Counted from the first letter of the stretch, positions 2,984 through 47,537 are shown. The stretch: 64,000 bases of DNA from Candidatus Omnitrophota bacterium (GCA_029564765.1 JAKQPK010000023.1:11479-75478); one strand, 5' to 3'. A program made the numbers and translations. Notes: generated from the sequence alone by a model not told the origin.

Positions 2984-3703
2984 TCAAAACGTAATCCATT
3001 CTTTCCTATGATTAACATTCATCCTTATAAGGTTGATTCTTTTGCCAAACAAGTTTTTCATCTGATCAAAAATTCCAGCGTCTATATTACATCCACAATA
3101 TACTTTTTTAATGCCACAATCTAAGTGGTAATGCTCCTTTTTCTGAATGACCCTAAATTCCTTTTCATATTTCCAATGAGCTAATTTTGTCGTTAAGGCA
3201 ATTAGAGATTGTTCGTTAGCTATTTTAGATTTAGGGCCATGAATTATTTCCGGCAAATCTTCTTTATAATCAACTTGAAATATTCGTCTTTTAGTATCCT
3301 TTGGAATTCGATGACGTTCTCTTCCCGGAGGTGTTTTTACCATCAGAACATCGTCATCAGGCACCTCTATTTCAATGGCTATTCCGGCACAGCTATCCGC
3401 ATAATGCGCCCAGAGAAGAACGTCATCATTTTTCTCTGAAAGGCAACAGATCCTCTTGTTTTTCACAAGAGTATTTATTTTCTCAGCCTTTGGATCTGAA
3501 CTTGAAGAACTTTCATATTCACCACGGACCAAAGACCCTGCTGGTGACTTCTCTCTTTTAATACCCGTCAGATATCTCAAGCTAAACATCCCCTCAAAAG
3601 GATCGTTTAACTTATCGATGCTTGCGCAATAAAGCCGCTTATTCAACAAAATATCGTACACGTGACCAAGATTACTTAAAGACTTATATTTATATAGTTT
3701 CAT
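2984..3703 (-). CDS. DUF2971 family protein
   Basis: 239 aa; signature elements of DUF2971: N-terminal LYKYKSL, LNDPFEG, ICCLSE...LLWAHYADSCAGIAIEI and C-terminal HWKYEKEFRV (EkEwR-like). Lies in an AT-rich stretch. Confidence 0.6.
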   Translation of the reverse strand: MKLYKYKSLSNLGHVYDILLNKRLYCASIDKLNDPFEGMFSLRYLTGIKREKSPAGSLVRGEYESSSSSDPKAEKINTLVKNKRICCLSEKNDDVLLWAHYADSCAGIAIEIEVPDDDVLMVKTPPGRERHRIPKDTKRRIFQVDYKEDLPEIIHGPKSKIANEQSLIALTTKLAHWKYEKEFRVIQKKEHYHLDCGIKKVYCGCNIDAGIFDQMKNLFGKRINLIRMNVNHRKEWITF

Positions 3704-3745
3704 TTTGTTGTGCCGGGTTGGAATCTAAAAACTCTAAACAACGCT

Positions 3746-5023
3746 CTACTGCCCTAGCAAGGTATTTTCTTCTTCATCCCAGGGACGTTCAGAAGTAGTT
3801 TCGTATTGGTCATGGGATTTGGGGTTGATATATCCGTTGCAAGTCTTATCATTGACTCTGATTTTTTTCTTAATCCATCCCAAGCGCATCATGCAGTCAG
3901 CAACGCGCCTCTGCCTGCCACGGTCGAAGTCAGAGGAGAAACCCTTCAAGCATTCTGTCCAAATATCAATGCTTCTTACCTTGGCCTTGCCGATAAGATA
4001 TTTCTCGATGGAGTCCTTCCAGCTATCAAAGGCATCAGGAGGACCTTGCACGTCTTCGGCATGCGAAAAAAGATATTCCAGAGCGATATTCCATTGCTTC
4101 TGTGTAGGATAATGGCTTAAAACAATCCCGCTGTTCAAAGCGCATTTTTGAATATTAATATATTTGATCAGCTTGTTATTTTTTATTGTTATTTGAGAAT
4201 CATTAATCACTAGAACCGATGTGTTTTTATCTTGCCTAAGTAATTTTACGATGCCAAAGGTATTGACAGCATTGACAGTATCCTCATCGCTCTGAAGACT
4301 TTCAGTTTTACATGAAGAAGGCAGAACATCTTCAGCATTTAAAAAAAGATGTTCAAGGGCACGATGCCATTCACCTTGCTCTGGAGAATGGCTCAGAACA
4401 ATCCCCTTGTTCAAAGCAGACTTCTGGATATTGCTGTATTTCATTATCTTATTATTTCTTATCTCAATTTCATGGCCATTTATTATCAAAATAGAAGTAT
4501 TATTACTTTTCTTCATGAGCTTTGTGATACCGAAGGTATTCACGTCAGCTTCTTCATCCTGAACAATATAAGATGCATCACCGGAAACTTTGACAGGAAT
4601 ATCTGTGATCCTGGAAAGCGAACCATCAGCATTATATCTAAAAAACTTTATTTCGGTCTCAGAAACAACAACGCCAAACAAAGCTCTCGCTACTGCAAGA
4701 TAGGAAACAAGTTGATGCTCAGTGTCCTTGTCCGCTTTTATCTTAATTTCAGCAATGATCAAGGGGGTTCTTTTATCGCTTAAAACTACGATGTCCGCGC
4801 GTTTCTTAGTGATGCCGATCTGGATAGGGTATTCTGTGATAACGGAAATAGGATCATAATTGTAATGCAAAACAAGCTTAACAAGAAACAACTGTCTCAC
4901 TACTTCCTCCGGCGTAGCCACTCGCTCGCTGGTGAAGTATTTGCTACAAATACTGCAAGCTCCTGAACCTTTTTCCGTTATAAGAATTCTGGACAAAAGG
5001 TCTGGTCGCATTGACCAAATCAT
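3746..5023 (-). CDS. HsdR-N-like PD-(D/E)xK nuclease-fold protein with two internal ~92-aa tandem repeats and a VirE/primase-C-like C-terminal tail
   Basis: 425 aa. The N-terminus (EYPIQIG...RADIVVL...PLIIAEIK) matches the type I restriction enzyme R-protein N-terminal (PD-D/ExK) domain pattern D...(E)xK. Residues ~156-233 and ~246-325 are two copies of the same unit (VNTFGI.KL....NTS.L.IN...I.I.NNK..KY.NIQK.ALN.GIVLSH.P.Q..W..ALE.LF..AEDV). The C-terminal RRVADCMMRLGWIKKKIRVNDKTCNGY resembles VapE/P4-primase C-terminal segments. AT-rich; SD aaggag upstream. Confidence 0.5.
   Translation of the reverse strand: MIWSMRPDLLSRILITEKGSGACSICSKYFTSERVATPEEVVRQLFLVKLVLHYNYDPISVITEYPIQIGITKKRADIVVLSDKRTPLIIAEIKIKADKDTEHQLVSYLAVARALFGVVVSETEIKFFRYNADGSLSRITDIPVKVSGDASYIVQDEEADVNTFGITKLMKKSNNTSILIINGHEIEIRNNKIMKYSNIQKSALNKGIVLSHSPEQGEWHRALEHLFLNAEDVLPSSCKTESLQSDEDTVNAVNTFGIVKLLRQDKNTSVLVINDSQITIKNNKLIKYINIQKCALNSGIVLSHYPTQKQWNIALEYLFSHAEDVQGPPDAFDSWKDSIEKYLIGKAKVRSIDIWTECLKGFSSDFDRGRQRRVADCMMRLGWIKKKIRVNDKTCNGYINPKSHDQYETTSERPWDEEENTLLGQ
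4049..4558 (-). repeat. in-frame ~276-nt tandem duplication inside the 3746..5023 CDS (two protein repeat units)
   Basis: Two collinear DNA segments (~4049-4288 and ~4325-4558) encode the two 80-92-aa repeat units; aligned stretches are visible at nucleotide level (e.g. ...aacaatcccgctgttcaaagcgcatttttgaatatt... vs ...aacaatccccttgttcaaagcagacttctggatatt...). Confidence 0.7.
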
Positions 5024-5052
5024 AAGACATATCTCCTTTTAATTTAATAAGA

Positions 5053-5070
5053 AACCCCTAAAACCTTTCT
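5053..5070 (-). promoter_or_regulatory. conserved upstream motif copy A (AGAAAGGTTTTAGGGGTT), 30 nt upstream of the 3746..5023 CDS start
   Basis: Gene-sense reading: ggcAGAAAGGTTTTAGGGGTTtcttattaaattaaaaGGAGATATgtcATG. Confidence 0.5.
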
Positions 5071-5072
5071 GC

Positions 5073-6044
5073 CTAAATCAACAAGTTCAAAATAACTTTG
5101 ATCAACAATTCTTTTTCTTCCGGCTTGCTCGCGGCAACCATAAGGGTCAAGGCGACCAACGCGTTGTCATCAATTCGCTTACTGCCGTCTTTGCGTAGAA
5201 GAATACCGTTTTTCTGCAAGAAACAGATAAAAAGTGCCGCCGCGATACGCTTGTTACCGTCAACAAAACTGTGGTTTTTTATAACGAAATACAATAAATG
5301 CGTAGCTTTTTCTTCGACCGTCGGATAAAGATCCTTTCCTCCAAACGTTTGATGGATAGCGTTGATGGAGCTTTGAAAACTCTTGTCCTTTTCCCGGCCA
5401 AAAAGCGGAAATTCCTTGAGCTGCTGTTTCATGGCCTGGATGATATTTTGAGCATGTTCATAAGTAAAAGCGAACCGAACTTGCCTTGTTCCCTTAGGGG
5501 AAGAAACCTTTTGATGATCGTAACCATCTAAAATATCAAGCGCGCGGCCATATTCTGCAATGACCTTGATCAACCCCTTAGTCTCATCGGATAGGCTATC
5601 AAGCTGGATGACGTTGCCTAAAAGCTTAATAGACCGCTGCAGTTCGAGATATTTATGTTCGGCAGTTTTCAACCGCTTTTCATTGATCGTATAGCCATCG
5701 ACCAAATGCTTCTTGAGCACCTTTGTGGCCCAGATACGGAAGCGGGTTCCATTCTTTGATTTGACACGGTATCCAACTGAGATAATGACATCGAGATTAT
5801 AGAAATTGGCTTCATAGGATTTCCCGTCAGAAGCAGTTATCCGGAATTTCCGGATAACTGCCTTTTTCGATAATTCTTGTTCCTTAAAAATATTCTGGAT
5901 GTGCTCATTGACAGTTCGCATGTTTCTACTAAATAACACAGCCATCTGTTTTTGGGTAAGCCAGACAGTCTCTTTTTCAAGATGAACTTTCAGGTCTTTG
6001 CCATACAAAACAACTTGACCCTTTGAAGCTTCATTGTTGATCAT
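5073..6044 (-). CDS. RhuM-family N-terminal domain fused to Fic/Doc-family domain (Doc-type motif)
   Basis: The table ORF runs to 6137, but the start is taken as ATG 6044 (MINNEASKGQVVLYGKDLKVHLEKETVWLTQKQMAVLF, a typical RhuM N-terminus) with a GGAG-type SD upstream. The C-terminal half carries HSFVDGNKRIAAALF, matching the Fic/Doc core HxFx(D/N)GNKR. Confidence 0.62.
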   Translation of the reverse strand: MINNEASKGQVVLYGKDLKVHLEKETVWLTQKQMAVLFSRNMRTVNEHIQNIFKEQELSKKAVIRKFRITASDGKSYEANFYNLDVIISVGYRVKSKNGTRFRIWATKVLKKHLVDGYTINEKRLKTAEHKYLELQRSIKLLGNVIQLDSLSDETKGLIKVIAEYGRALDILDGYDHQKVSSPKGTRQVRFAFTYEHAQNIIQAMKQQLKEFPLFGREKDKSFQSSINAIHQTFGGKDLYPTVEEKATHLLYFVIKNHSFVDGNKRIAAALFICFLQKNGILLRKDGSKRIDDNALVALTLMVAASKPEEKELLIKVILNLLI

Positions 6045-6060
6045 GTCAATATCTCCCCTC

Positions 6061-6079
6061 AACCCCCAAAAACCTTTCT
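6061..6079 (-). promoter_or_regulatory. conserved upstream motif copy B (AGAAAGGTTTTTGGGGGTT), 17 nt upstream of the RhuM-Doc start
   Basis: Gene-sense reading: gggAGAAAGGTTTTTGGGGGTTgaggGGAGATATtgacATG. Shares both the motif and the GGAGATAT SD-like block with copy A. Confidence 0.5.
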
Positions 6080-6081
6080 CC

Positions 6082-6525
6082 CTACCCTCTACTCTCCAAG
6101 ATGAAAGTGACGGGCCCGTCGTTAATGAGTGCCACATCCATCATGGCGCGGAATTGGCCGGTTTGAACCTTTTGGCCAGCGCTTTTAAGCGCATCGACAA
6201 ACGCGTTATAAAATTCTTCACCTTTTTGCGGATCCGCGGCCGCATCAAAAGAAGGGCGCCTGCCTTTTTCGCAGGCGCCCAAAAGTGTAAATTGCGAAAC
6301 GACCAAAAATTCCCCGCCGACTTCGGTAATAGAACAATTCATCTTGCCCTGAGCATCTTCAAAAATGCGAAGTTCAATAAGCTTTCTGACAAGATAGTTG
6401 ATATCATCTGCTGTGTCTTCTTTGGCAACGGCTAAAAAAACCAATAACCCTTTGCCGATACGGCCCACCACCTGGCCGCCCACCGTGACACTCGCCTCTT
6501 TGACCCTTTGCAAAACGATACGCAT
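6082..6525 (-). CDS. dtd: D-aminoacyl-tRNA deacylase
   Basis: 147 aa; MRIVLQRV start, SQFTL and NDGPVTF motifs characteristic of Dtd. Confidence 0.85.
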   Translation of the reverse strand: MRIVLQRVKEASVTVGGQVVGRIGKGLLVFLAVAKEDTADDINYLVRKLIELRIFEDAQGKMNCSITEVGGEFLVVSQFTLLGACEKGRRPSFDAAADPQKGEEFYNAFVDALKSAGQKVQTGQFRAMMDVALINDGPVTFILESRG

Positions 6526-24018: not shown

Positions 24019-24315
24019 CTATTTGTATTCACAAAGATAGGCCGCGTCTTCGGTCGTCTTGACCTTAAAAACAGATTTGGCTGGAACATCAAAAGATGAT
24101 CCCGCGCCAAAATCTTCCCATTCTTCGTATGCTGGCAGATAAACAGACATCATGCCGGCGATAACCGTCATGGCCTCCGGGCCATCAGTATTAAATTCAT
24201 ACTCACCCGGTTCAATAACACCCACGGTTTTCTTACCCTCAGCTGAATTAACGACCAACGACTTGACCTTCCCTTCAAAATACTCATTGACTGTAACCAC
24301 GACTATGACCCCCAT
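24019..24315 (-). CDS. ppnP: pyrimidine/purine nucleoside phosphorylase PpnP (YaiE/UPF0345/DUF1255 family)
   Basis: 98 aa; close motif agreement with E. coli YaiE (NEYFEGKVKS..., GEYEF.T...E.MTVI.G, C-terminal YLCEY). Confidence 0.7.
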   Translation of the reverse strand: MGVIVVVTVNEYFEGKVKSLVVNSAEGKKTVGVIEPGEYEFNTDGPEAMTVIAGMMSVYLPAYEEWEDFGAGSSFDVPAKSVFKVKTTEDAAYLCEYK

Positions 24316-24439
24316 TTAAATTGATTATAACAATACCCAACACCTTAAATTATTGTACTGATTGAATGAAAAAAATCCAGAGGAAAAATTAACTGAGGCC
24401 ATAACTTACGGAGCAACAGCGCTCGTAAGTTATCCAGCC

Positions 24440-24561
24440 GAACTTATTTCGAGCCAAAGGCGAGGAGCAAATGAGCGCCAAATTGTTCATGCGAACTTAT
24501 TTCGAGCCGAAGGCGAGAAGCAAATGTGCACCCAGATCCACTGGCGAGGAGCCAGTGAGCA
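24440..24561 (+). repeat. non-coding direct repeat, 53-bp period, two full ~39-bp copies plus a partial third
   Basis: gaacttatttcgagccaaaggcgaggagcaaatgagcgc (24440-24478) and gaacttatttcgagccgaaggcgagaagcaaatgtgcac (24493-24531), then gcgaggagccagtgagcac. Preceded by hairpin taacttacg-N13-cgtaagtta (24402-24432). Period is not a multiple of 3 and no ORF is maintained. Confidence 0.6.
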
Positions 24562-24626
24562 CACAAGTTGAAAAGAAAAGATTGGGACACTTCTATCAAA
24601 ACCCCTTATCCGCCAACGGTTTATTT

Positions 24627-24647
24627 AGAAACGTTCTAGGGTTTTTT
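24627..24647 (+). promoter_or_regulatory. conserved motif variant copy D (AGAAACGTTCTAGGGTTTTTT) inside the non-coding stretch
   Basis: Plus-strand copy, 19/21 identical to copy C. A weaker relative, gggggAGAAAGTTCTAAGC, sits at 24941-24960. Confidence 0.4.
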
Positions 24648-25082
24648 CCGCTAACCTTTTATTCACAAACAACGAACAACGGTAACAACGAAAATGTGCC
24701 AGGCACTTTTTAGTGTAAATCAGCTGATAGGCAGAAGGTTAAAGCTATTTCACCTTAACCCAGAAACGGAAATATTTAGCCTTTACAGGATAAATCGTCT
24801 TCCCATTCCTAATGATGTACCGGCAGAATACCAAGCGGCATCCCGGACGGTATTCACATTGTCCAGCCATATGCTGACCCTCCTTTCTAGCGAAGGTTTT
24901 CTCACCTCCAAGCCCATTTTGTAATTTTCAAAAAGGGGCTGGGGGAGAAAGTTCTAAGCTAAAATAGAAGATCATCAAAAGGACGACCCATCTGCCTATC
25001 AGCAATATTCAAAGAACTCCGAATTCCAGGGACACGTACAAAATTAATTAGGTACGTATCCCCTGACTCCTTGTAAGAATTT

Positions 25083-26339
25083 TTATCGAAAACTTGTTAT
25101 TTCATTAAATATTTCAATTGCAAAATTATCGGTCATTCCGGCAATGAAATCAATAACAGATTGTGTATAGCTTCCTTTGTCTGCCAAAACATACAATATT
25201 TCATTATTATATTTATTTCCTAAACTACGAAACTTTGGATACGACATTGGCCAGCTCCTAAGGTCCGACCGTCCCTTTATCCACGCCAAGAAATTTCTTT
25301 GCAATATTGGATAAACTTTTAGACTTTTTTTGATGCTCTCGTATGAATCTCTTTGCGCATAAGCCCTCATCAAAACCTCAAAAACTAACTCTATAACAAG
25401 CTTCGCATACTTTTTATACGCTTGCAATCTTTCGCTGCTATAGATATTTCTATAGTTGTACTCGGTCAAAGAAGTCATTACTTTTGAATACTTTTCTGTG
25501 AACCGTATGCCATTTTCTGGGCTGCTAGCTCTACATAAATCAATGATAAATCCATGCATTAAAGCTGTGTTGCTTATCTCGCGAATTTTTTCTTTTTTTC
25601 CAACTATATCATTAACTATGGCTTTTAATTCTTTGAGCTGCTGTTTCCTTAAAATATCTAACCGCACAGCATCTTCAATGTCTCTGCCTATATATGCAAT
25701 TCGATCGGATATCTTTACTACGCATCCCTCCCATGTAAAAGGAGTAAATAACCCTTTTTCTTGGATAGTCGCCAAATCTATTGCTTGTTCTCTTGGATAA
25801 ATCGTATTTCCTCTATCTTCCCCACAATGCAGCAAGATTCCGTCTCTCACTGCATAGGTTAACAATAAATTCTGGAAAACATCATTTTGATCAGGCAAAA
25901 TTTCAATTTGATCAGCAAATCGTAAACTATTTCGTTCATGCCAAAATTTAGCGCTCAATTTATCTTTAGTAATTTCCTCTAATACTTCTTCACCAGCATG
26001 ACCAAAAGGAGCGTGCCCAAGATCATGACCCAAAGCTATTGCATTAGTTAATTCAGTGTTTAAGCCAAGAAAATTAGCAATTGTATAACTGACAGCAACA
26101 ACATGATTAACATGCTCAATCCTGGTACAAATATGGTCGTTTTTTGTAGCAAAAAAAACTTGTGTTTTATGCTTTAATCTCCGAAAAGCCGTACAGTGAA
26201 GTATCCGATTATAATCTCGCGCAAATTCGCTTCTTATCTCTGGATCGCGTGAATACAATGAATGCTGTCGCTTAATAGCATTTTCCCATTTTCTATTTTT
26301 CTCATACATTCTGACAGAAAAAAATGAGTCTTTTCCCAT
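25083..26339 (-). CDS. dGTP triphosphohydrolase-family HD-domain protein, divergent second paralog
   Basis: 418 aa; motifs (RILHCTAFRRLKHKTQVF, HVNHVVAVS, GHDLGHAPFGHAGEEVLEE) are collinear with the canonical dgt-like gene at 43009..44214. Sits in an AT-rich segment. Has the conserved upstream motif and a GAGG SD. Confidence 0.72.
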   Translation of the reverse strand: MGKDSFFSVRMYEKNRKWENAIKRQHSLYSRDPEIRSEFARDYNRILHCTAFRRLKHKTQVFFATKNDHICTRIEHVNHVVAVSYTIANFLGLNTELTNAIALGHDLGHAPFGHAGEEVLEEITKDKLSAKFWHERNSLRFADQIEILPDQNDVFQNLLLTYAVRDGILLHCGEDRGNTIYPREQAIDLATIQEKGLFTPFTWEGCVVKISDRIAYIGRDIEDAVRLDILRKQQLKELKAIVNDIVGKKEKIREISNTALMHGFIIDLCRASSPENGIRFTEKYSKVMTSLTEYNYRNIYSSERLQAYKKYAKLVIELVFEVLMRAYAQRDSYESIKKSLKVYPILQRNFLAWIKGRSDLRSWPMSYPKFRSLGNKYNNEILYVLADKGSYTQSVIDFIAGMTDNFAIEIFNEITSFR

Positions 26340-26356
26340 ACAAAAACCTCATAAAA

Positions 26357-26372
26357 ACCCCAAAACGTTTCT
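26357..26372 (-). promoter_or_regulatory. conserved upstream motif copy C (AGAAACGTTTTGGGGTT), 18 nt upstream of the dGTPase-paralog start
   Basis: Gene-sense reading: gatAGAAACGTTTTGGGGTTtttatGAGGtttttgtATG, within the 34-nt gap between the ORF6N and dGTPase-paralog genes. Confidence 0.5.
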
Positions 26373-26373
26373 A

Positions 26374-26871
26374 TCAAAATCCAAGCTTACCCTTGGGCTT
26401 TTGCGGCTCTTCGAATAGATTTTTCAAAGCACTAAATACTACTTGAAATTGCTTGTCGTATTTCCTTTCCATCTCTTCGATTTTACGCCTGATATTAACA
26501 TTTGTTAAAGACATCCGGCGTAATTGGGTAAATGCGCGCATGATTTGAATGTTGACAGCGATCGCCCTATCGCTACTTAATACTCCCGAAAGCATCGCAA
26601 CGCCTTGCTCGGTAAAAGCTAAAGGCAAGTGGGGCGAAAATTTTAAGAATTTGAGGTGGTCGCAAATTGCGACCACCTCTTCTTTTTCTTTATTCGTTAA
26701 CTGGAACATAAAATCTTCCGGGAATCGTTTTTTGTTCCTTTTTACCTGCTCGTTGAGCCGTTTTGTTTGCACGCCATACAATAAAGCCAAATCGCTATCC
26801 ATCATGACTTTTTTGCCCCGAATGAAGAATATCTTGCTGGTGATAGCCTCAGCTGAAATTAAATTAGGCAT
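26374..26871 (-). CDS. ORF6N (KilA-N-related) domain protein
   Basis: 165 aa; IFFIRGKKVMMDSDLALLYGVQTKRLNEQVKRNKKRFPEDFMFQLT matches the ORF6N domain consensus. AT-rich. Confidence 0.62.
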   Translation of the reverse strand: MPNLISAEAITSKIFFIRGKKVMMDSDLALLYGVQTKRLNEQVKRNKKRFPEDFMFQLTNKEKEEVVAICDHLKFLKFSPHLPLAFTEQGVAMLSGVLSSDRAIAVNIQIMRAFTQLRRMSLTNVNIRRKIEEMERKYDKQFQVVFSALKNLFEEPQKPKGKLGF

Positions 26872-27054
26872 GACTGTTCTTCCTTCCCGCAGGATACGCT
26901 TCTGAGCTGAAAAAATAAGATTTCACGGATACATACACCGTTAGTCAGATATCTACTGCCAGACTTTTAGCTAATTTGATATATACCACTCACGTGTGTG
27001 GATGTCAAGAAATTTCCCCAGGTAGCCTCTAAATGTCTTGATCATTTATTGCTT

Positions 27055-27092
27055 CTCCAAAACAAAAGTGCCCCGACGATTTGTCGGGGCAC
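27055..27092 (-). terminator. rho-independent terminator downstream of groEL
   Basis: GC-rich hairpin GTGCCCCGAC-loop-GTCGGGGCAC followed on the minus strand by TTTTGTTTT. A second AT-richer hairpin (ttattccgacatttgtcggaataa, 27196-27219) lies closer to the stop. Confidence 0.7.
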
Positions 27093-27227
27093 TTATTAGT
27101 TACGCTTGTTTTGTAGATAGACGATTCAAGATGTTTTGCCTTTCTTAAAGGAGATCCCGCGGCTACTTGTCTGCCTTCGGCAGAAAAGCAGCCTGGGATA
27201 ATTTATTCCGACATTTGTCGGAATAAA

Positions 27228-28895
<1,668 letters not shown>

Positions 28896-41308: not shown

Positions 41309-41905
41309 TTATAATCTCCTTACTAAACAATCTTTGTATTTATCTTTGAGCTTCCCTAAAAAAGTTTTAGCGGCCTGAGAATCGACAAAGCGGCCAACAC
41401 AGACAATGATATGCTTGCCCTTAGAAACAACGAATGTTTCATATCCTTTTTTCTCTAAGGCGGCGGCTTCTTTTTCCGCGTACTTCTTAGATACAAACGA
41501 CGCAAGCTGTATCGTATAAAAGTTTTGCGGAGCCTCGACTAGAGCTTGAGGCATTTTGTCTTCAGGAGCACTAGCTGTTTCCCGAACGTCAGCAACGGAA
41601 GCCGCTGGTATCTGAGGCTGGATCGCTTTCCTTTTTTCTACCGGCTGATCAGCTACGACTGGTTGAACTGCGATCTTGCGCGCGACTGCCACAGGCTGAG
41701 CAGAAGCAACACGTTTTCCTTTCTCAACACCGACAGAGAAAGATACGATAATAGCGAGAAAGATAAAAACAGTCAAGACAATAATATTTTCCGCGCTCAA
41801 TGTCACATTCGACAAGATAAAACGCGATACAGCCGATTCGGATGATGATTTTCGATCGGCATTCGAAAACAATTCAAATTGATCTTGTTTATAATTAATA
41901 TCCAT
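41309..41905 (-). CDS. SPOR domain membrane protein (cell-division/peptidoglycan-binding)
   Basis: 198 aa; one TM helix; C-terminal SPOR-like fold pattern (YTIQLASF.....A...A..L...G....VV..G.HIIVCVGRF). Confidence 0.6.
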   Translation of the reverse strand: MDINYKQDQFELFSNADRKSSSESAVSRFILSNVTLSAENIIVLTVFIFLAIIVSFSVGVEKGKRVASAQPVAVARKIAVQPVVADQPVEKRKAIQPQIPAASVADVRETASAPEDKMPQALVEAPQNFYTIQLASFVSKKYAEKEAAALEKKGYETFVVSKGKHIIVCVGRFVDSQAAKTFLGKLKDKYKDCLVRRL

Positions 41906-41920
41906 AAATGTATTATAAGG

Positions 41921-43003
41921 TTATGAGCCTATCATGCTCAAGTATTTTCTAAATTTTGTTTGAGAACACAGCTCACAAAATACCTTAACGACCTTCGGGT
42001 CGAACTGCGTCCCGCTCTTTTTCAGGATCTCTTGCCTCATGCGCGGCAATGAGACTTTTCGCTTGTAAGGCCGCTGGACCATCATAGCTTCTGCGGCATC
42101 AACCACAGCCATCACGCGCGCACCCAAAGGGATCTCCTCCGCGCAAAGCCCCGATGGATAACCTTTGCCATCGTAACGTTCATGATGATACAAAATAATC
42201 GGAAGGACAGGCTTTAAGAACGCAACAGGCTTGATCAATTCAACACTTTTCTCAGGATGCCGACGGATCTCTCTGAATTCAGCAGGTGTCAATCGCCCTT
42301 GCTTGCGTAAAATATGATGCGGAATGTCAATGGAGCCAGCATCATGCAAGATGCTCGCATATTCTAGGGCCGCAATATCTTTTTCGTTCATTCCCATTTC
42401 TTGAGCCAGAGATTGCACGATCTTGTAATATGCCGGCGCGTGCTGACAAAATTCTTTCACGCCTTGCTTCGCGAAAAACTTTCCCATAGATCGAATACTA
42501 TCAAGAATGACCTTCTGCTGGAGCTCTTGCAATTGCAAATTACGCACAGCGATAACGACCTCTTCCGCAAGAACAGTTAACACTTCCCTGTCAAAATCCT
42601 CGAATGGTTTCTGTGCCGGCTTACGCCTCATAAAAATGGCACCGATGTTCTCCTCGCTGACAAGAGGTAGGCCGATAAATCTCTCGCGAATAATGGTCGC
42701 GCCCTTGACCACGCTGCGCTCGTCCTTGGTTGCCTTGGCCAGATCGGCTTTGCGCTCATAAAGAATATTGATCTTGCCGTTAAAAACAGCGATCAACTTT
42801 AAATGTTTTCCCCTGTCATCTAAGACGTGAACACACGACGAACTAGCGCCCACCAGCTGGCAGATAATGCGCGTGAGACGGATCAAAAGCTCCTTGGTGC
42901 TATATGTGGAGTTGACCAAGCGGTAGACCATGTGGACCGCAGCGATGACACGCTTGTATTTTTCTTTTGAAGAAATATTATATTTGATTCTATGAGGGCT
43001 CAT
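41921..43003 (-). CDS. GAF domain-containing HD-GYP phosphodiesterase
   Basis: 360 aa; HD (ILHDAG), YHHERYDGKGYP (GYP) motif. Predicted c-di-GMP hydrolase. Confidence 0.7.
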   Translation of the reverse strand: MSPHRIKYNISSKEKYKRVIAAVHMVYRLVNSTYSTKELLIRLTRIICQLVGASSSCVHVLDDRGKHLKLIAVFNGKINILYERKADLAKATKDERSVVKGATIIRERFIGLPLVSEENIGAIFMRRKPAQKPFEDFDREVLTVLAEEVVIAVRNLQLQELQQKVILDSIRSMGKFFAKQGVKEFCQHAPAYYKIVQSLAQEMGMNEKDIAALEYASILHDAGSIDIPHHILRKQGRLTPAEFREIRRHPEKSVELIKPVAFLKPVLPIILYHHERYDGKGYPSGLCAEEIPLGARVMAVVDAAEAMMVQRPYKRKVSLPRMRQEILKKSGTQFDPKVVKVFCELCSQTKFRKYLSMIGS

Positions 43004-43008
43004 AAGTT

Positions 43009-44214
43009 TTACGAAAGTTTTTGATATTCTTCCAAAGCCACACGATCCGTCATGTCAGCGATGAAATCACAGATAATCTCTTTTTCTGTTTCTTTAGAAT
43101 ATTTTTTATCTGGATCATAAATGTCATACGGGAGCTGACGAGGGTTGCTACTGTAGATATCGAACAGCCGGTGGATCACACGCTTGGCCTTTGTGGTCAT
43201 GCGCTCAACCAGGTAGTGATGATACAGCTTTTTATTTAGGATCTGCTGGAGTTCATCGCGCTCCTGCGCCATCACAGCGCTGAACTTTATCGAGAAATCG
43301 CTGGTCTTTTTAACATCATTAACGGAACCGAAATGATGCTGCGTGATCTCCTTATCAGAAGTCTCAAGAAGGTCCTTAACTTGAATATCGATCAAGGTCT
43401 TGACGATCAAATTCCGCTCTAAGGCTTCATTGCCAATCGGTGTCGACGGCTGAAGGCCAGCGATCGTCCTTGACCATAAGGCGCTCGCGCTAAGATCCTC
43501 TTTACGAATATATCCGGAAGCCAACCCATCATCAATATCATGATTGAGATATGCTAGCTCATCGGCAACGTTGACGATCTGCGCTTCCAAGGTCGGGAAT
43601 TCATTGAGCGACTGATCGCCTAGTGATGGTGCGTCATAGGTCGTTTTATGCTTGAGAATGCCAACAAGCACTTCCCGTGTTAGATTCAACCCATCAAAGG
43701 CCGGATAGCGTTTTTCCTTAGTAACGATCTCAAAGCTTCTCTTGTTATGATTAAACCCCTTGCTTGTTTTGGCCTGAGAGATAAAACGCAAGAATTCATC
43801 AATCTTATTCCCACTCATGATCTCATCCAGCGCCTTTTCTCCAGCGTGTCCAAAAGGAGGATGGCCAAGATCATGCGCTAAGGCGATCGCCTCGATCAGG
43901 TCCTCATTGAGCATCAAGCTGCGGCCGATCGTGCGAGCGATCTGAGCCACCTCGATCGTATGCGTAAGTCGTGTACGATAATAGTCCCCTTCGAAGATCG
44001 GGAAAACTTGAGTTTTGTATTCGAGGTTACGAAAAGCGCGCAAATGAACGATGCGGTCACGGTCCCTCTGGTAGCATGTGCGGGTCGGATGGCCCGGCTC
44101 TGCAAAAAAACGGCCAGCCGAATCCTTGCTGTGCATCGCATAAGGGGCTAAAACAACATCCTCAAGCTTTTCGATTTCTTCTCTGGTCCTCACGACATAG
44201 CTCCTTAAAGACAA
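43009..44214 (-). CDS. dgt: dGTP triphosphohydrolase-like protein (canonical paralog)
   Basis: 401 aa; RDRDRIVHLRAFRNLEYKTQVF, THTIEVAQI, AHDLGHPPFGHAGE motifs of the Dgt subfamily. GC content like the core genes. Confidence 0.8.
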   Translation of the reverse strand: MSLRSYVVRTREEIEKLEDVVLAPYAMHSKDSAGRFFAEPGHPTRTCYQRDRDRIVHLRAFRNLEYKTQVFPIFEGDYYRTRLTHTIEVAQIARTIGRSLMLNEDLIEAIALAHDLGHPPFGHAGEKALDEIMSGNKIDEFLRFISQAKTSKGFNHNKRSFEIVTKEKRYPAFDGLNLTREVLVGILKHKTTYDAPSLGDQSLNEFPTLEAQIVNVADELAYLNHDIDDGLASGYIRKEDLSASALWSRTIAGLQPSTPIGNEALERNLIVKTLIDIQVKDLLETSDKEITQHHFGSVNDVKKTSDFSIKFSAVMAQERDELQQILNKKLYHHYLVERMTTKAKRVIHRLFDIYSSNPRQLPYDIYDPDKKYSKETEKEIICDFIADMTDRVALEEYQKLS

Positions 44215-44668
44215 CGGTCATTGATTGCGAAATAACCTTAGTGCCCGCAGTGACGGGCATAAAATTAACATCCCCTTTCCACCGAGGAACAATGTGAATG
44301 TGAAAATGGTTCGGAAATCCTGCTCCAGCTAAACGACCAACATTGATCCCAATATTATACCCTTGGGGCTTTAAAACCTTATCCAAAAGAGCCTGAGCGT
44401 ATTCTAGCGTGTCTAAAAGATCTTGCTTTTCAAATTTCGTAAGTTTTCTTAATTCTCCAACATGGCGGTACGGGATCACCATCGCATGTCCATTGTTGTA
44501 TGGAAAAATATTTAAGACAGCGAAGCAATGTTGGCTGCGCTTGAAGATAAGGTTCTTCTTATCCTTTTGTTCAGAGTGGATACGACAAAAAACGCATCCC
44601 TTCTTTTTTTGATCGATCGCCGTGACATACGCGCTGCGCCATGGAGCCCAAAGACGTTTATTGTTCAT
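44162..44668 (-). CDS. HIT family (histidine triad) protein, GalT/Ap4A-phosphorylase-like
   Basis: 168 aa; N-terminal WAPWR.Y motif and histidine triad FHIHIVPR. Confidence 0.7.
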   Translation of the reverse strand: MNNKRLWAPWRSAYVTAIDQKKKGCVFCRIHSEQKDKKNLIFKRSQHCFAVLNIFPYNNGHAMVIPYRHVGELRKLTKFEKQDLLDTLEYAQALLDKVLKPQGYNIGINVGRLAGAGFPNHFHIHIVPRWKGDVNFMPVTAGTKVISQSMTVVFKELCREDQRRNRKA

Positions 44669-45140
44669 CGATCCTCACGATCGTGGCTGTGATCTTATCG
44701 GTAATATCCAAAATGCCGTATGAGCGGTACGGCGCAAACACCGTATCGGTAATGCTCCCAGGATTAAAAAAAAGAACGCTCCCGATCTTTTCATTAAAAG
44801 GATGATGCGAATGGCCAAAAACAACAGCATCAACCTTCTGGTCCTTGAATTCTTTTTGAACACAAGCTAACAAACGGTCCGGATGCCCTTCTCCGTGGAA
44901 AACTCCGATCGTGAAAGCTCCACAACGGATCAACTGCGTACGCGCAAGCTGTCCACGAAGCTTCCCATCATCCATATTACCATGCACAGCTTTGATCTCG
45001 TTAATTTTCTGGAGCTGGCGCAAAGATTCTTCGCAGCAGATATCACCGGCATGGATAATAAAATCCATCTTCTTAAGGTCCGCGACCGCAGAAGTAGGGA
45101 TCGGACGTGAATGCGTGTCTGAAATAACCCCGATCCTCAT
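44658..45140 (-). CDS. YfcE/MJ0936-family metallophosphoesterase
   Basis: 160 aa; MRIGVISDTH, GDI, GNMD, GHSH metal-ligand motifs. Confidence 0.75.
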   Translation of the reverse strand: MRIGVISDTHSRPIPTSAVADLKKMDFIIHAGDICCEESLRQLQKINEIKAVHGNMDDGKLRGQLARTQLIRCGAFTIGVFHGEGHPDRLLACVQKEFKDQKVDAVVFGHSHHPFNEKIGSVLFFNPGSITDTVFAPYRSYGILDITDKITATIVRIDEQ

Positions 45141-46768
45141 AGCGCGATGTATGGTTTATTGTACATGTTCAACAAGAAATTAAGCTCCTTTTCATCCCAG
45201 ATCCACATGCGTTCCTGAAGCGCTCGCAAACGTAAAGGATTCCCGAGATCCCTTAAAGAGATAATGACCTGTTTACGCGGCTTCCCCTCGACCTTTTTGA
45301 TCTCATCAAGCAAGGCGTTCATATCGTTCTCCGACAGGTCTTTGTCATGCAGCATCACGATCCATGGCCCATCAGGAGCATAGGCCTTGATGACATCCAT
45401 TTCTGCTGTCGGCGACATGGCCATCCTTGTCGATTTAAACTTCTCAAAAGACGACAGACGATAGCGACGGCCATGCACATGGAACGTTTCGTCATTAAAA
45501 CAGCTGAGCAGCTCGATCACGCGCACTGAGAGATCCTTTTGTGATGCCAAATGAAAGGCATTAACGTTATGCGCAAATTCTTCACGGAACAAGATCCTCT
45601 CTTGCTGGGGATCAAAGCCGACAAAATTTAAGCGACGCTTGAGGATGTACTTGATCCAATAACGGAACAATTTGTCTTTTAAATAATAAAATCTTCCGCT
45701 GCGCTCAACGAGCCCTAACTCGATCAGATGTGACAACTTTTGCTTGATGATAATCTTTTTTCTGCGTTCGTGAACGCAAACGATCTCATCAAGGCTGTTC
45801 TTTTGCTCTGCCAAGGCGATCAACAAGCGCAGCGTTGCTTCATCGTCTTTCGGCCAGGACAAGCTTTCGACTAGGATCTCAAAATGACGGCTCAAGACAC
45901 CCCAGCGGTTAAAGATCGTGTTCTCTACAGCGTAGGACAAAAACGGCAAAAAGATCTCGGCTTGGCGGTGAAGCTGGCACAACTGGTTTAGCTGAGAGAT
46001 CAAAATGTTAAGGTACAGCGGATGCCCACCGGTAAAATCAACTAAGAAATTTTTTAGCTGATCTTTGATCTGAAAATCCTTTAAATGACTCTCCATAAAC
46101 TCCTTGCTGGTCTTCATGGAGAATGGTTCAACGTCGACGATCTCAAAATGACCAAACAAAAGCGACAATTTTTCAGTGAGGATCTTGCGCGCAACTTCCT
46201 GTAAGGAGCTTGCCATGAAATAAAGGCATCGTTTTTGGGTCATGATCCTCTTGCCAAGCTCCTGAAAAGCTTCATCAATATCCAAATGATCCAAATAATG
46301 GAATTCATCAAAAAGAATAACGCAGAACTTGCTCGTTTCAAGCGTGAAGATCTCCGGCAGCGACACCAAATGCTCATAAGCCTCAACAAAACGTTTTTTC
46401 TCGCTGAGAGCCTGGACCTGCTTGATGGCGGCAAAGGTTTGGGGCAGGCGATGTTGCGTGGTCTCTAACAATAAAGCTAGGTCATGATGCAGCGCAAGGT
46501 TCTCGCTTTTCGCGAAATTGTACAGAAGGCTTGTTATAAAATTGGTAGCCAGATACGGAAAATCTTTTCCCTTGAAATTAACATAAACAACGATCAAATC
46601 CTTGTCATCAAGATCGTGAATAAATTTCTGAAGCAAGGACGTCTTGCCGATATGCTCCGGGCCGATGAAGGCAACGTTCTGACGATAGCCGTCCTTGAGG
46701 TCCAAGACGCGTTTTTTTAGAAGGCCTAAGACTTCCTGTCGCCCAAAAAAATTCTTATCAATATCCAT
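45137..46768 (-). CDS. ATP-binding protein, archaeal-ATPase (PF01637)-like with C-terminal extension
   Basis: 543 aa; FFGRQEVLGLL...VAFIGPEHIGKTSLL (Walker A), Walker B-like ILFDEF. Remainder unassigned (DUF234-like region possible). Confidence 0.5.
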   Translation of the reverse strand: MDIDKNFFGRQEVLGLLKKRVLDLKDGYRQNVAFIGPEHIGKTSLLQKFIHDLDDKDLIVVYVNFKGKDFPYLATNFITSLLYNFAKSENLALHHDLALLLETTQHRLPQTFAAIKQVQALSEKKRFVEAYEHLVSLPEIFTLETSKFCVILFDEFHYLDHLDIDEAFQELGKRIMTQKRCLYFMASSLQEVARKILTEKLSLLFGHFEIVDVEPFSMKTSKEFMESHLKDFQIKDQLKNFLVDFTGGHPLYLNILISQLNQLCQLHRQAEIFLPFLSYAVENTIFNRWGVLSRHFEILVESLSWPKDDEATLRLLIALAEQKNSLDEIVCVHERRKKIIIKQKLSHLIELGLVERSGRFYYLKDKLFRYWIKYILKRRLNFVGFDPQQERILFREEFAHNVNAFHLASQKDLSVRVIELLSCFNDETFHVHGRRYRLSSFEKFKSTRMAMSPTAEMDVIKAYAPDGPWIVMLHDKDLSENDMNALLDEIKKVEGKPRKQVIISLRDLGNPLRLRALQERMWIWDEKELNFLLNMYNKPYIAL

Positions 46769-46780
46769 ACCCTTGACCTT

Positions 46781-47437
46781 TTATGGCAAAAAATACAATG
46801 GATTCTTCGCTATAGAATCCTTTCGGATCTCAAAATGTAAGGACGCCAAACTGCTATGGCCCGAAGCAAGCGCTATAGCTGTCTGTGACGTCACATGTTC
46901 ACCAACGGAAACCAACAGTTTGGCGTTATCCGCATAAACGGTTTGATAACCATCTCCGTGACTAACGATCAGTGTCGGGCCATACCCGATCAAATGGTCC
47001 GCGAAAACAACCTCCCCTCCTCTGGAAGGGAACACCTGCTGATCAGGCTCAGACTTGATATCGATCCCATTGTTCACGCCAAATCTTGATTTTGGATCCC
47101 CAAAAAAAGAGACGACCTTCCCGCGGATCGGCCATTTAAAATCATCGTCACTAAAAGCTTCTTCACGAGAAACGACGGATCTTTCAGTAGTTGCCTGGGG
47201 AATAAAGATGAGCTGATTCTGCTGAATATGCGCGGCATCTGGAATGCTATTGGCTCTTACTATCTCCTCGACGCTAATGCCATACGCCTGGGAGATACGC
47301 CATAAGGTTTCTTTCGGCTTGACCTTATGATAAATGCCCGCTGGCCGCTTAAACGCCTCAGTGCGCATAGCTTCATGAGGCGTTGCGCAACCAGAAAGTA
47401 TAAAACTTGCTACAACGATCCCAGCAAGAAAAGATCT
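46781..47437 (-). CDS. LysM domain-containing M23 family peptidase (NlpD-like lipoprotein)
   Basis: Start taken at MRSFLAG so the CDS does not run through the tRNA. Lipobox LSGC, LysM (YHKVKPKETLWRISQAYGISVEEIVRAN), and M23 motifs (GIDIK, HLHFEI). Confidence 0.7.
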   Translation of the reverse strand, partial: RSFLAGIVVASFILSGCATPHEAMRTEAFKRPAGIYHKVKPKETLWRISQAYGISVEEIVRANSIPDAAHIQQNQLIFIPQATTERSVVSREEAFSDDDFKWPIRGKVVSFFGDPKSRFGVNNGIDIKSEPDQQVFPSRGGEVVFADHLIGYGPTLIVSHGDGYQTVYADNAKLLVSVGEHVTSQTAIALASGHSSLASLHFEIRKDSIAKNPLYFLP

Positions 47438-47465
47438 CATTATTATGACCATAGTAATAAATACG

Positions 47466-47537
<72 letters not shown>

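Follow-up and report, generated by a model that had tools for sequence, protein, structure and literature searches.

The window analyzed here, a stretch of 64,000 nucleotides (nt) from a metagenome-assembled genome of Candidatus Omnitrophota, carries between groEL and ppnP a gene for an HD phosphohydrolase of the Dgt family which, judging from its sequence and genomic context, is an acquired, accessory and probably active deoxynucleoside triphosphate (dNTP) triphosphohydrolase located in a variable hotspot. Its likeliest role, in which we place moderate confidence, is that of a stand-alone accessory nucleotide-depletion effector that would limit phage DNA replication. In this scheme, the groEL-ppnP stretch is a hotspot that holds two independently acquired modules. 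The first (26378-26909), with an ORF6N gene that appears to circulate within Omnitrophota, corresponds on its own to the single-gene PADLOC candidate PDC-S05; the second is a 1,748-bp segment, the only gene of which is the foreign, AT-rich gene for the HD enzyme of the Dgt/SAMHD1 superfamily. The enzyme would hydrolyze dNTPs, so that phage DNA replication would be limited, and, by analogy with characterized members of the family, is probably regulated allosterically by nucleotide levels. We infer the catalytic activity, the substrate range, any trigger and the role in defense. A preliminary description of this DNA had presented the enzyme gene and the ORF6N gene as an AT-rich insertion and a candidate two-gene defense unit; the present analysis confirms its sequence-level observations and supports its interpretation in part, the partnership of the two genes not being supported.

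On the minus strand, groES and groEL (27228-28880) are followed by a terminator, the ORF6N gene, a 34-nt spacer (26340-26373), the enzyme gene in the same orientation, a spacer of 768 nt that is poor in open reading frames (ORFs), and ppnP, beyond which lie a gene for an unknown protein of 249 amino acids (aa), guaB and guaA. The enzyme is recorded as an Omnitrophota protein; its sequence is identical in independent samples and is also found on a 252-kb JGI contig. The features of the locus, together with the second dgt gene of the window, are as follows.

27066..27094, minus strand: strong intrinsic terminator after groEL, with a 12-bp stem containing 8 GC pairs, then a T-run
26378..26909, minus strand: ORF6N module, comprising the ORF6N gene and 38 nt upstream
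26374-26871, minus strand: ORF6N gene, 165 aa (Pfam ORF6N, E 8e-31)
26353..26373, minus strand: forward copy of the junction motif, TAGAAACGTTTTGGGGTTTTT, at the left end of the inserted segment, starting immediately after the ORF6N stop codon
25083..26339, minus strand: island enzyme, a Dgt-family HD phosphohydrolase of 418 aa (Pfam HD and HD_assoc)
24647..25082, no strand assigned: non-coding 3' part, 436 nt, of the segment bounded by inverted repeats
24626..24646, plus strand: reverse (inverted) copy of the junction motif at the right end of the segment, matching the forward copy at 19 of 21 positions
24019..24315, minus strand: ppnP, the core flank of the hotspot (Pfam Ppnp, E 1.6e-33), syntenic in the closest sister genome
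43009..44214, minus strand: core, housekeeping-type dgt paralog (NF002326, 414 bits against a cutoff of 390; GC content at third codon positions, GC3, 0.53)

The groEL terminator sets the transcription of groESL apart from the variable region. Gene calls and Pfam searches reproduced the coordinates, the 34-nt spacing and the HD motifs previously given for the enzyme and ORF6N genes, as well as the presence of two dGTPase-family genes in the window, one of which, at 43009..44214, is core-like in composition (GC3 0.530) and belongs to a tight co-directional gene run with gaps of at most 15 nt.

Composition was judged against the 59 ORFs in the window that encode 120 aa or more (GC3 mean 0.494, standard deviation 0.060). 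The enzyme gene (GC 0.352, GC3 0.291) has the lowest GC3 of all 59, with z = -3.4, in agreement with the compositional difference that had been proposed for it. The ORF6N gene is of ordinary composition (GC 0.408, GC3 0.476, z = -0.3), so that the notion of an AT-rich insertion stands for the enzyme gene and falls for its neighbor; with a foreign composition in one gene and an ordinary one in the other, the pair does not make up a single compositional island. The best homologues of the enzyme are only 61% identical to it, and those with a named source belong to Negativicutes, Clostridia and Desulfobulbaceae. The island paralog is divergent, as had been claimed, with 29% identity to the core dgt product, and does not cluster with the lineage's own Dgt. 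Its status as a horizontally acquired accessory gene is thus supported by the extreme GC3 and by the lack of the gene at this site both in the closest sister genome (L180, GCA_964486675.1) and in a more distant sister lineage (L168-L170). A phage origin finds no support for either gene: no close relatives were detected in the phage collection, where the best matches are 56% identical (partial) for ORF6N and 35% for the enzyme, and IMG/VR yielded only two distant partial matches.

Comparison with the sister genomes shows that the interval between groEL and ppnP is variable. In L180, the region from uvrB through groES-groEL is 94.7% identical to the window at the nucleotide level and ppnP-guaB-guaA 92.5% identical, and between these flanks there is only an unrelated gene for a 145-aa protein; homology with the window stops at the groEL stop codon (27227) and restarts at window position 24645, in the reverse motif copy. 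The proposed insertion between ppnP and groEL is therefore confirmed, given that L180 keeps both flanks and differs in what lies between them. In L168-L170, where groEL is 80% identical, an ORF6N gene occupies the same place with 87% nucleotide identity, homology ends exactly at its stop codon, and the enzyme is absent; downstream of ORF6N are insertion sequence (IS) transposase genes, and the contigs break there. The interval holds at least three different contents and is therefore a turnover hotspot. These comparisons indicate that the ORF6N gene and the enzyme gene were acquired separately. The 145-aa cargo gene of L180 (8825-9262) is AT-rich (GC 0.37 versus 0.47 in its flanks) and its product has a lipoprotein-like N-terminus; searches of Pfam and PADLOC returned no match for it.

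The inverted repeat formed by the two motif copies brackets the 1,748-bp segment (24626-26373), which consists of the enzyme gene, its sole gene, and the 436 nt of non-coding DNA. The 21-nt form of the forward motif ends 13 nt before the start codon of the enzyme gene, and the window contains no other such 19/21 inverted repeat. The core pattern of the motif, AGAAASGTTYTDGGG, occurs four times in the 64 kb against 0.12 occurrences expected, and all four copies lie within two AT-rich islands, in line with the earlier designation of the motif as island-specific. The first of these islands lies about 20 kb from the enzyme segment and contributes two further forward copies.

6065..6079, minus strand: forward motif copy between the core gene dtd, whose stop codon it adjoins, and the RhuM-Fic gene (5073-6044), which it precedes
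5056..5070, minus strand: forward motif copy that adjoins the stop codon of RhuM-Fic and precedes the HSDR_N_2 gene (3746-5023)

The first island (2984-6079) comprises three defense-candidate genes, namely RhuM-Fic, HSDR_N_2 (3746-5023) and DUF2971 (2984-3703). The RhuM-Fic protein is a full-length match to PADLOC PDC-S23 (E 4e-129), and the DUF2971 protein matches PDC-S31. The true start of RhuM-Fic is probably the ATG at 6044 rather than the one at 6137. A degenerate motif copy seen by eye upstream of the DUF2971 gene was absent from the profile search and was not counted. In L180, a weak forward copy lies before the cargo gene and three reverse copies lie after it; the weak forward copy and an additional reverse copy were recovered with a profile built from the copies.

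The motif marks the edges of foreign, mostly defense-type, single-gene insertions, and the motif-bounded cassette architecture, common to both AT-rich islands and to the sister genome, is the least expected feature of the region. The claim that the paralog resides in a variable hotspot and has its motif in common with other defense-candidate genes is accordingly retained. Folding gave no sign that the motif is a structured element or a terminator (z-scores between -0.8 and +0.5, no structure common to the copies), and Rfam returned no match to it. Viral contigs contain 26 isolated matches, about the number estimated to occur by chance, and none of these contigs has more than one copy. No target-site duplication is visible in the segment flanks, and the IS elements beside ORF6N in L168 and L170 have no such inverted-repeat ends. 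Annotation of the islands, of the sequences flanking the hotspot and of the operon with the core dgt identified no integrase or transposase, the window as a whole not having been scanned systematically. A cassette reading is suggested because the forward copies stand right after a resident stop codon and just before each foreign gene, and because the window and L180 both have inverted copies where the hotspot ends on its far side. In its boldest form, which we find doubtful, the motif of about 25 nt, GATTTAGnTAGAAA[C/G]GTTyTrGGGkTTTT, would serve for recombination or insertion in a cassette system of this Omnitrophota lineage that has yet to be described. Such a system would swap single defense-type genes at fixed chromosomal sites and would resemble integrons in function, though not in attC structure; the clade of ~408-aa proteins to which the enzyme belongs would contribute to it a mobile sub-lineage acting as a new stand-alone nucleotide-depletion defense.

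The enzyme retains the hallmarks of an active HD phosphohydrolase. It contains the active-site motif ALGHDLGHAPFGHAGEE, the GHDLGHAPFGHAGE motif can be read directly in its sequence, and the metal-binding and catalytic positions H76, H105, D106, H114 and D212 do not vary among 29 aligned clade members; E117, placed by motif comparison with E. coli Dgt, is the residue which we take to complete the HE dyad. Pfam detects the HD domain (E 1.4e-7) and HD_assoc. The enzyme passes TIGR01353 only marginally (152.4 bits against a cutoff of 152.35; other clade members 158-173) and remains below every dGTPase equivalog cutoff (NF002326-NF002330, NF002829, NF002205, NF003429), the best being NF002327 with 241 bits against a cutoff of 393. 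The same profile behavior (218-242 bits with NF002327) characterizes the whole clade, a large, uncharacterized group of ~408-aa proteins. The AlphaFold2 (AF2) model of the enzyme is of high quality (pLDDT 89, pTM 0.90), and its best match in the PDB is TT1383 of Thermus thermophilus (2dqb, TM score 0.65-0.77), followed by Sp-dGTPase, CloA and E. coli Dgt at 16-19% identity. From the intact H..HD..D site, the HE dyad and the TT1383-like fold, the enzyme is predicted to hydrolyze dNTPs to deoxynucleoside and triphosphate.

The main rival to a role in defense is an acquired nucleotide-pool enzyme, that is, an ordinary dNTP-pool or salvage enzyme of the kind present in Clostridia, Negativicutes and Bacteroidales, without an immune role, for which the position next to ppnP-guaB-guaA would be incidental or mildly useful, the deoxynucleoside products being substrates of PpnP. 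We consider this possible, though less likely than a role in defense. Several observations favor it and weigh against defense. In 41 species genomes, the 150 genes lying within two positions of a clade member on either side belong mostly to housekeeping functions or nucleotide metabolism, such as those for thymidylate kinase, YfbR-like proteins, guanylate kinase and deaminases, with restriction-modification (R-M) or candidate systems occurring sporadically; gene clustering up to four positions on either side in 41 loci revealed no conserved clade neighborhood. In 59 clade loci, GC3 tracks that of the host (median difference -0.002; z below -1.5 in only 10%), so that most clade members are compositionally native. 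A gene for a YfbR-like 5'-deoxynucleotidase follows that of the dGTPase homologue in four of the seven closest relatives (55-61% identity) and in 6 of 81 loci across the clade; this recurrent partner suggests nucleotide catabolism, and the pair would turn dNTPs and dNMPs (the monophosphates) into deoxynucleosides. Such dGTPase-YfbR operons are those of P0007, P0009, P0012 and P0013, some of them beside dnaE and SepF. The nearest solved structure, TT1383, is that of a non-defense enzyme.

The curated anti-phage models likewise reject the enzyme (NF041026, 111 bits against a cutoff of 400; NF003701, 92 against 383), and structural alignment shows only about 17% identity to Sp-dGTPase (9p8w). Among Sp-dGTPase homologues, co-localization with defense genes is 53% for close and about 10% for distant ones (Tal et al., bioRxiv 10.1101/2021.04.26.441389), the distant homologues thus being mostly not linked to defense; the present clade divides in a like manner. 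Of the two paralogs of the window, the housekeeping one is nearer by sequence to Sp-dGTPase, CloA and the octameric dGTPase of Vibrio (Vdg), and it scores 297 bits with the PADLOC dGTPase model versus 177 for the island paralog; given that it has the higher score, a PADLOC-type match is no evidence of a defense role.

Other observations are harder to reconcile with an ordinary metabolic enzyme. A canonical dgt, scoring above its equivalog cutoff, is already present in the genome, and the island copy is without a YfbR partner or a remnant of one: searches of the 768-nt spacer with tblastn, tblastx and Pfam at E values up to 1 detected no degraded YfbR gene and no other gene remnant. In sister genomes the hotspot is occupied by IS elements or by unrelated cargo, the junction motif is common to defense-candidate genes, and foreign copies of the enzyme elsewhere lie mostly beside R-M, toxin-antitoxin (TA) or PADLOC candidate genes. 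Examination of the contexts of the closest homologues, which rests on nine look-ups, shows that some of these relatives lie in a type I R-M operon or beside PADLOC candidate genes. The enzyme groups with P0002 and P0003, and P0002 is the last gene of a QueC/deoxyribosyltransferase cluster, adjoining a DUF3644 gene that corresponds to PDC-S19 (E 2e-147); P0005 (59% identity) is located inside a type I R-M operon. Among the low-GC3 copies, that of L087 is beside Phd/ParE and a transposase gene, that of L112 (7938-10716, GC3 z = -3.4) is followed by genes for a TetR regulator and a ToxN type III toxin, and that of L181, also of low GC3, has no defense neighbors. From these contexts, the clade looks mostly native and housekeeping, with a mobile minority of foreign copies that stand mostly beside R-M, TA or defense-candidate genes. 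The proposal of nucleotide-depletion defense is therefore sustained in part, namely as an acquired accessory enzyme with a plausible stand-alone role, and is qualified by the failure of the curated anti-phage models and by the ordinary contexts of most of the clade.

Two contexts of relatives deserve description in their own right. In L085 (1742-7873), the gene for the closest homologue (61% identity) is the last of a cluster that also encodes Ogg-HhH, a fusion of PfkB and nucleoside 2-deoxyribosyltransferase, QueC and a nitroreductase-like protein, and DUF3644 (PDC-S19) comes next; the cluster may specify a pathway for 7-deazapurine deoxynucleosides or one related to immunity. In the relatives of the Negativicutes type, the dNTPase and YfbR genes are 10-35 nt apart (L087 7001-8824, L178 640-2453, L179 7001-8842 and L181 90-1913).

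The preliminary description cast the ORF6N protein as a possible sensor, regulator or decoy for the dNTPase, the pair forming one defense unit, and as phage-type. The two genes are co-oriented and separated by 34 nt, the ORF6N domain is of a DNA-binding type, and the partly palindromic junction motif between the genes could be an operator; co-transcription is possible because there is no convincing terminator between them. The prediction of conserved linkage did not hold, an outcome that the preliminary description had itself named as refuting: tblastn located no ORF6N homologue within 8-10 kb of relatives of the enzyme in any of 165 loci (80 genome loci; 80 metagenome loci among the matches listed, which do not include the closest relatives; and 5 further ones). 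Homologues of ORF6N elsewhere lie beside unrelated genes (IS elements, glutamate synthase, HipBA, SIR2), the two genes of the window differ in composition and phylogenetic origin, and the sister lineage has ORF6N at the site without the enzyme, the homology stopping at the stop codon. A two-gene system is thus largely refuted already by the lack of co-occurrence and appears improbable, and the pairing is best accounted for, from these comparisons, by two genes that reached the hotspot independently.

The ORF6N gene has a distinct history. Its homologues at 65-93% identity number in the hundreds, those with a name are all from Omnitrophota, and in many cases the contig measures 1-2 kb; in the comparison with L168 it is better conserved than groEL (87% versus 80% at the nucleotide level). 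This conservation and the short contigs point to recent exchange among Omnitrophota and to flanks that are variable or repeat-like, and the gene, which encodes a protein with a DNA-binding domain, is Omnitrophota-restricted and probably mobile. The label of phage-type cannot be demonstrated here: the gene belongs to a chromosomal and mobilome family confined to Omnitrophota, and the phage collection contains no close relatives. A recent preprint describes heavy gene flow from chromosomes to mobile elements in Omnitrophota, and an element with paired KilA-N/ORF6N genes. The ORF6N protein matches the PADLOC PDC-S05 model PDLC04856 end to end (E 1.4e-62, positions 3-167 of 177). One RhuM-type representative of PDC-S05 cut the plating of T7 and T5 approximately 1000-fold in E. 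coli (bioRxiv 10.1101/2024.09.26.614923); this representative has a Virulence_RhuM domain, whereas the window protein matches ORF6N only. The AF2 model of the ORF6N protein (pLDDT 50, pTM 0.28) was too poor for a fold search and was not used. In L173-L175 (5466-6504), two tandem ORF6N genes lie between a HipBA toxin-antitoxin module and a gene for a SIR2-domain protein.

That the enzyme gene is an inert passenger of a decaying mobile cassette, without current function in the host, might be suggested by the 436-nt 3' region without recognizable content, by the lack of a detected transposase or integrase in the segment and by the presence of both inverted-repeat ends in only one cassette of the window, but is most improbable given the intact ORF with every clade-invariant residue kept, the identical sequence in independent samples and the good ribosome-binding site before the start codon.

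The remaining features of the locus fall outside the enzyme gene. The 436-nt 3' region contains a weak terminator-like hairpin (24969-24989, minus strand) and showed no recognizable gene remnant and no Rfam match; for the locus as a whole, no non-coding RNA was detected with Rfam, either at the gathering threshold or at E values up to 1. Two repeats complete the description.

26653..26679, no strand assigned: perfect palindrome with a 12-bp stem, GAGGTGGTCGCAAATTGCGACCACCTC, within the ORF6N coding sequence, 100% conserved in L168-L170
24427..24560, no strand assigned: tandem direct repeat of 53 nt, two copies (83% identity) and part of a third, located outside the insertion in the ancestral spacer next to ppnP

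The tandem repeat is located about 110-245 nt upstream of ppnP, is partly common to L180, and has no Rfam match. The gene run that includes the core dgt (41309-47515) encodes an M23/LysM peptidase, an AAA ATPase, Metallophos_2, HIT, Dgt, GAF-HD_5 and SPOR proteins, and is rich in nucleotide phosphohydrolases.

Should the enzyme indeed act in defense, nucleotide-depletion immunity would extend to a large uncharacterized branch of the Dgt family, and to the candidate phylum Omnitrophota, the immune repertoire of which is almost unknown. The locus also carries a methodological caution: calls of dGTPase defense based on hidden Markov models cannot separate housekeeping from accessory enzymes, and in this case the housekeeping gene scores higher. 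Beyond the enzyme itself, the motif-bounded turnover of single genes at the groEL-ppnP and dtd sites may represent a cassette-exchange mechanism.

Compared with known dNTPases, the enzyme is most similar to TT1383 of Thermus thermophilus HB8 (PDB 2dqb), its best match in sequence (E 1.6e-36) as well as in structure (TM score 0.65-0.77), with which it has in common the HD catalytic core and the C-terminal HD_assoc helices. The identity is only 26-28%, and the sequence match mainly covers residues 35-240; the core paralog of the window is far closer to TT1383 (E 1e-78), which is a resident housekeeping enzyme and, unlike the island paralog, is not island-borne. With the Sp-dGTPase family, the enzyme has in common the superfamily and the predicted chemistry, and some of its close relatives lie inside type I R-M operons, the setting in which defensive dGTPases were first noticed (Tal et al., bioRxiv 10.1101/2021.04.26.441389). 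Nevertheless, the sequence match to Sp-dGTPase is confined to the N-terminal 90-100 residues, and the enzyme lies outside the defense-enriched set of Tal et al., which is defined by at least 45% identity to Sp-dGTPase. Clover, which consists of the CloA dNTPase and the CloB nucleotidyltransferase (PMC12265719), and the octameric Vdg of Vibrio (PMC13519002) are HD dNTPase effectors of nucleotide depletion that are subject to allosteric regulation by nucleotides. Similarity of the enzyme to CloA is limited to about 100 residues (E ~1e-12), and similarity to Vdg is weak (61 bits); unlike in Clover, no nucleotidyltransferase of the Pol-beta type (CloB) is found beside the enzyme, the neighbors of which are ORF6N and, on the other side, the ORF-poor spacer and then ppnP.

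The arrangement of the islands, in turn, recalls integron cassettes and clusters of attC sites lacking integron-integrases (CALINs), in which single, promoterless-looking genes likewise alternate with a short repeated site that adjoins the stop codon before it. The window islands also resemble integron cassettes in holding defense-type cargo, which is reported for sedentary integrons (bioRxiv 10.1101/2024.07.02.601686). The differences lie in the site and in the layout: attC is an imperfect hairpin of about 55-140 nt, whereas the window motif spans about 25 nt within linkers of 34-49 nt and has no attC-like fold, and the copies of the window motif are distributed over two separate mini-arrays and not gathered in a single one. 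The inverted repeat bracketing the dNTPase segment is, for its part, reminiscent of mobile insertion cassettes, in which inverted repeats bound a passenger gene without a transposase.

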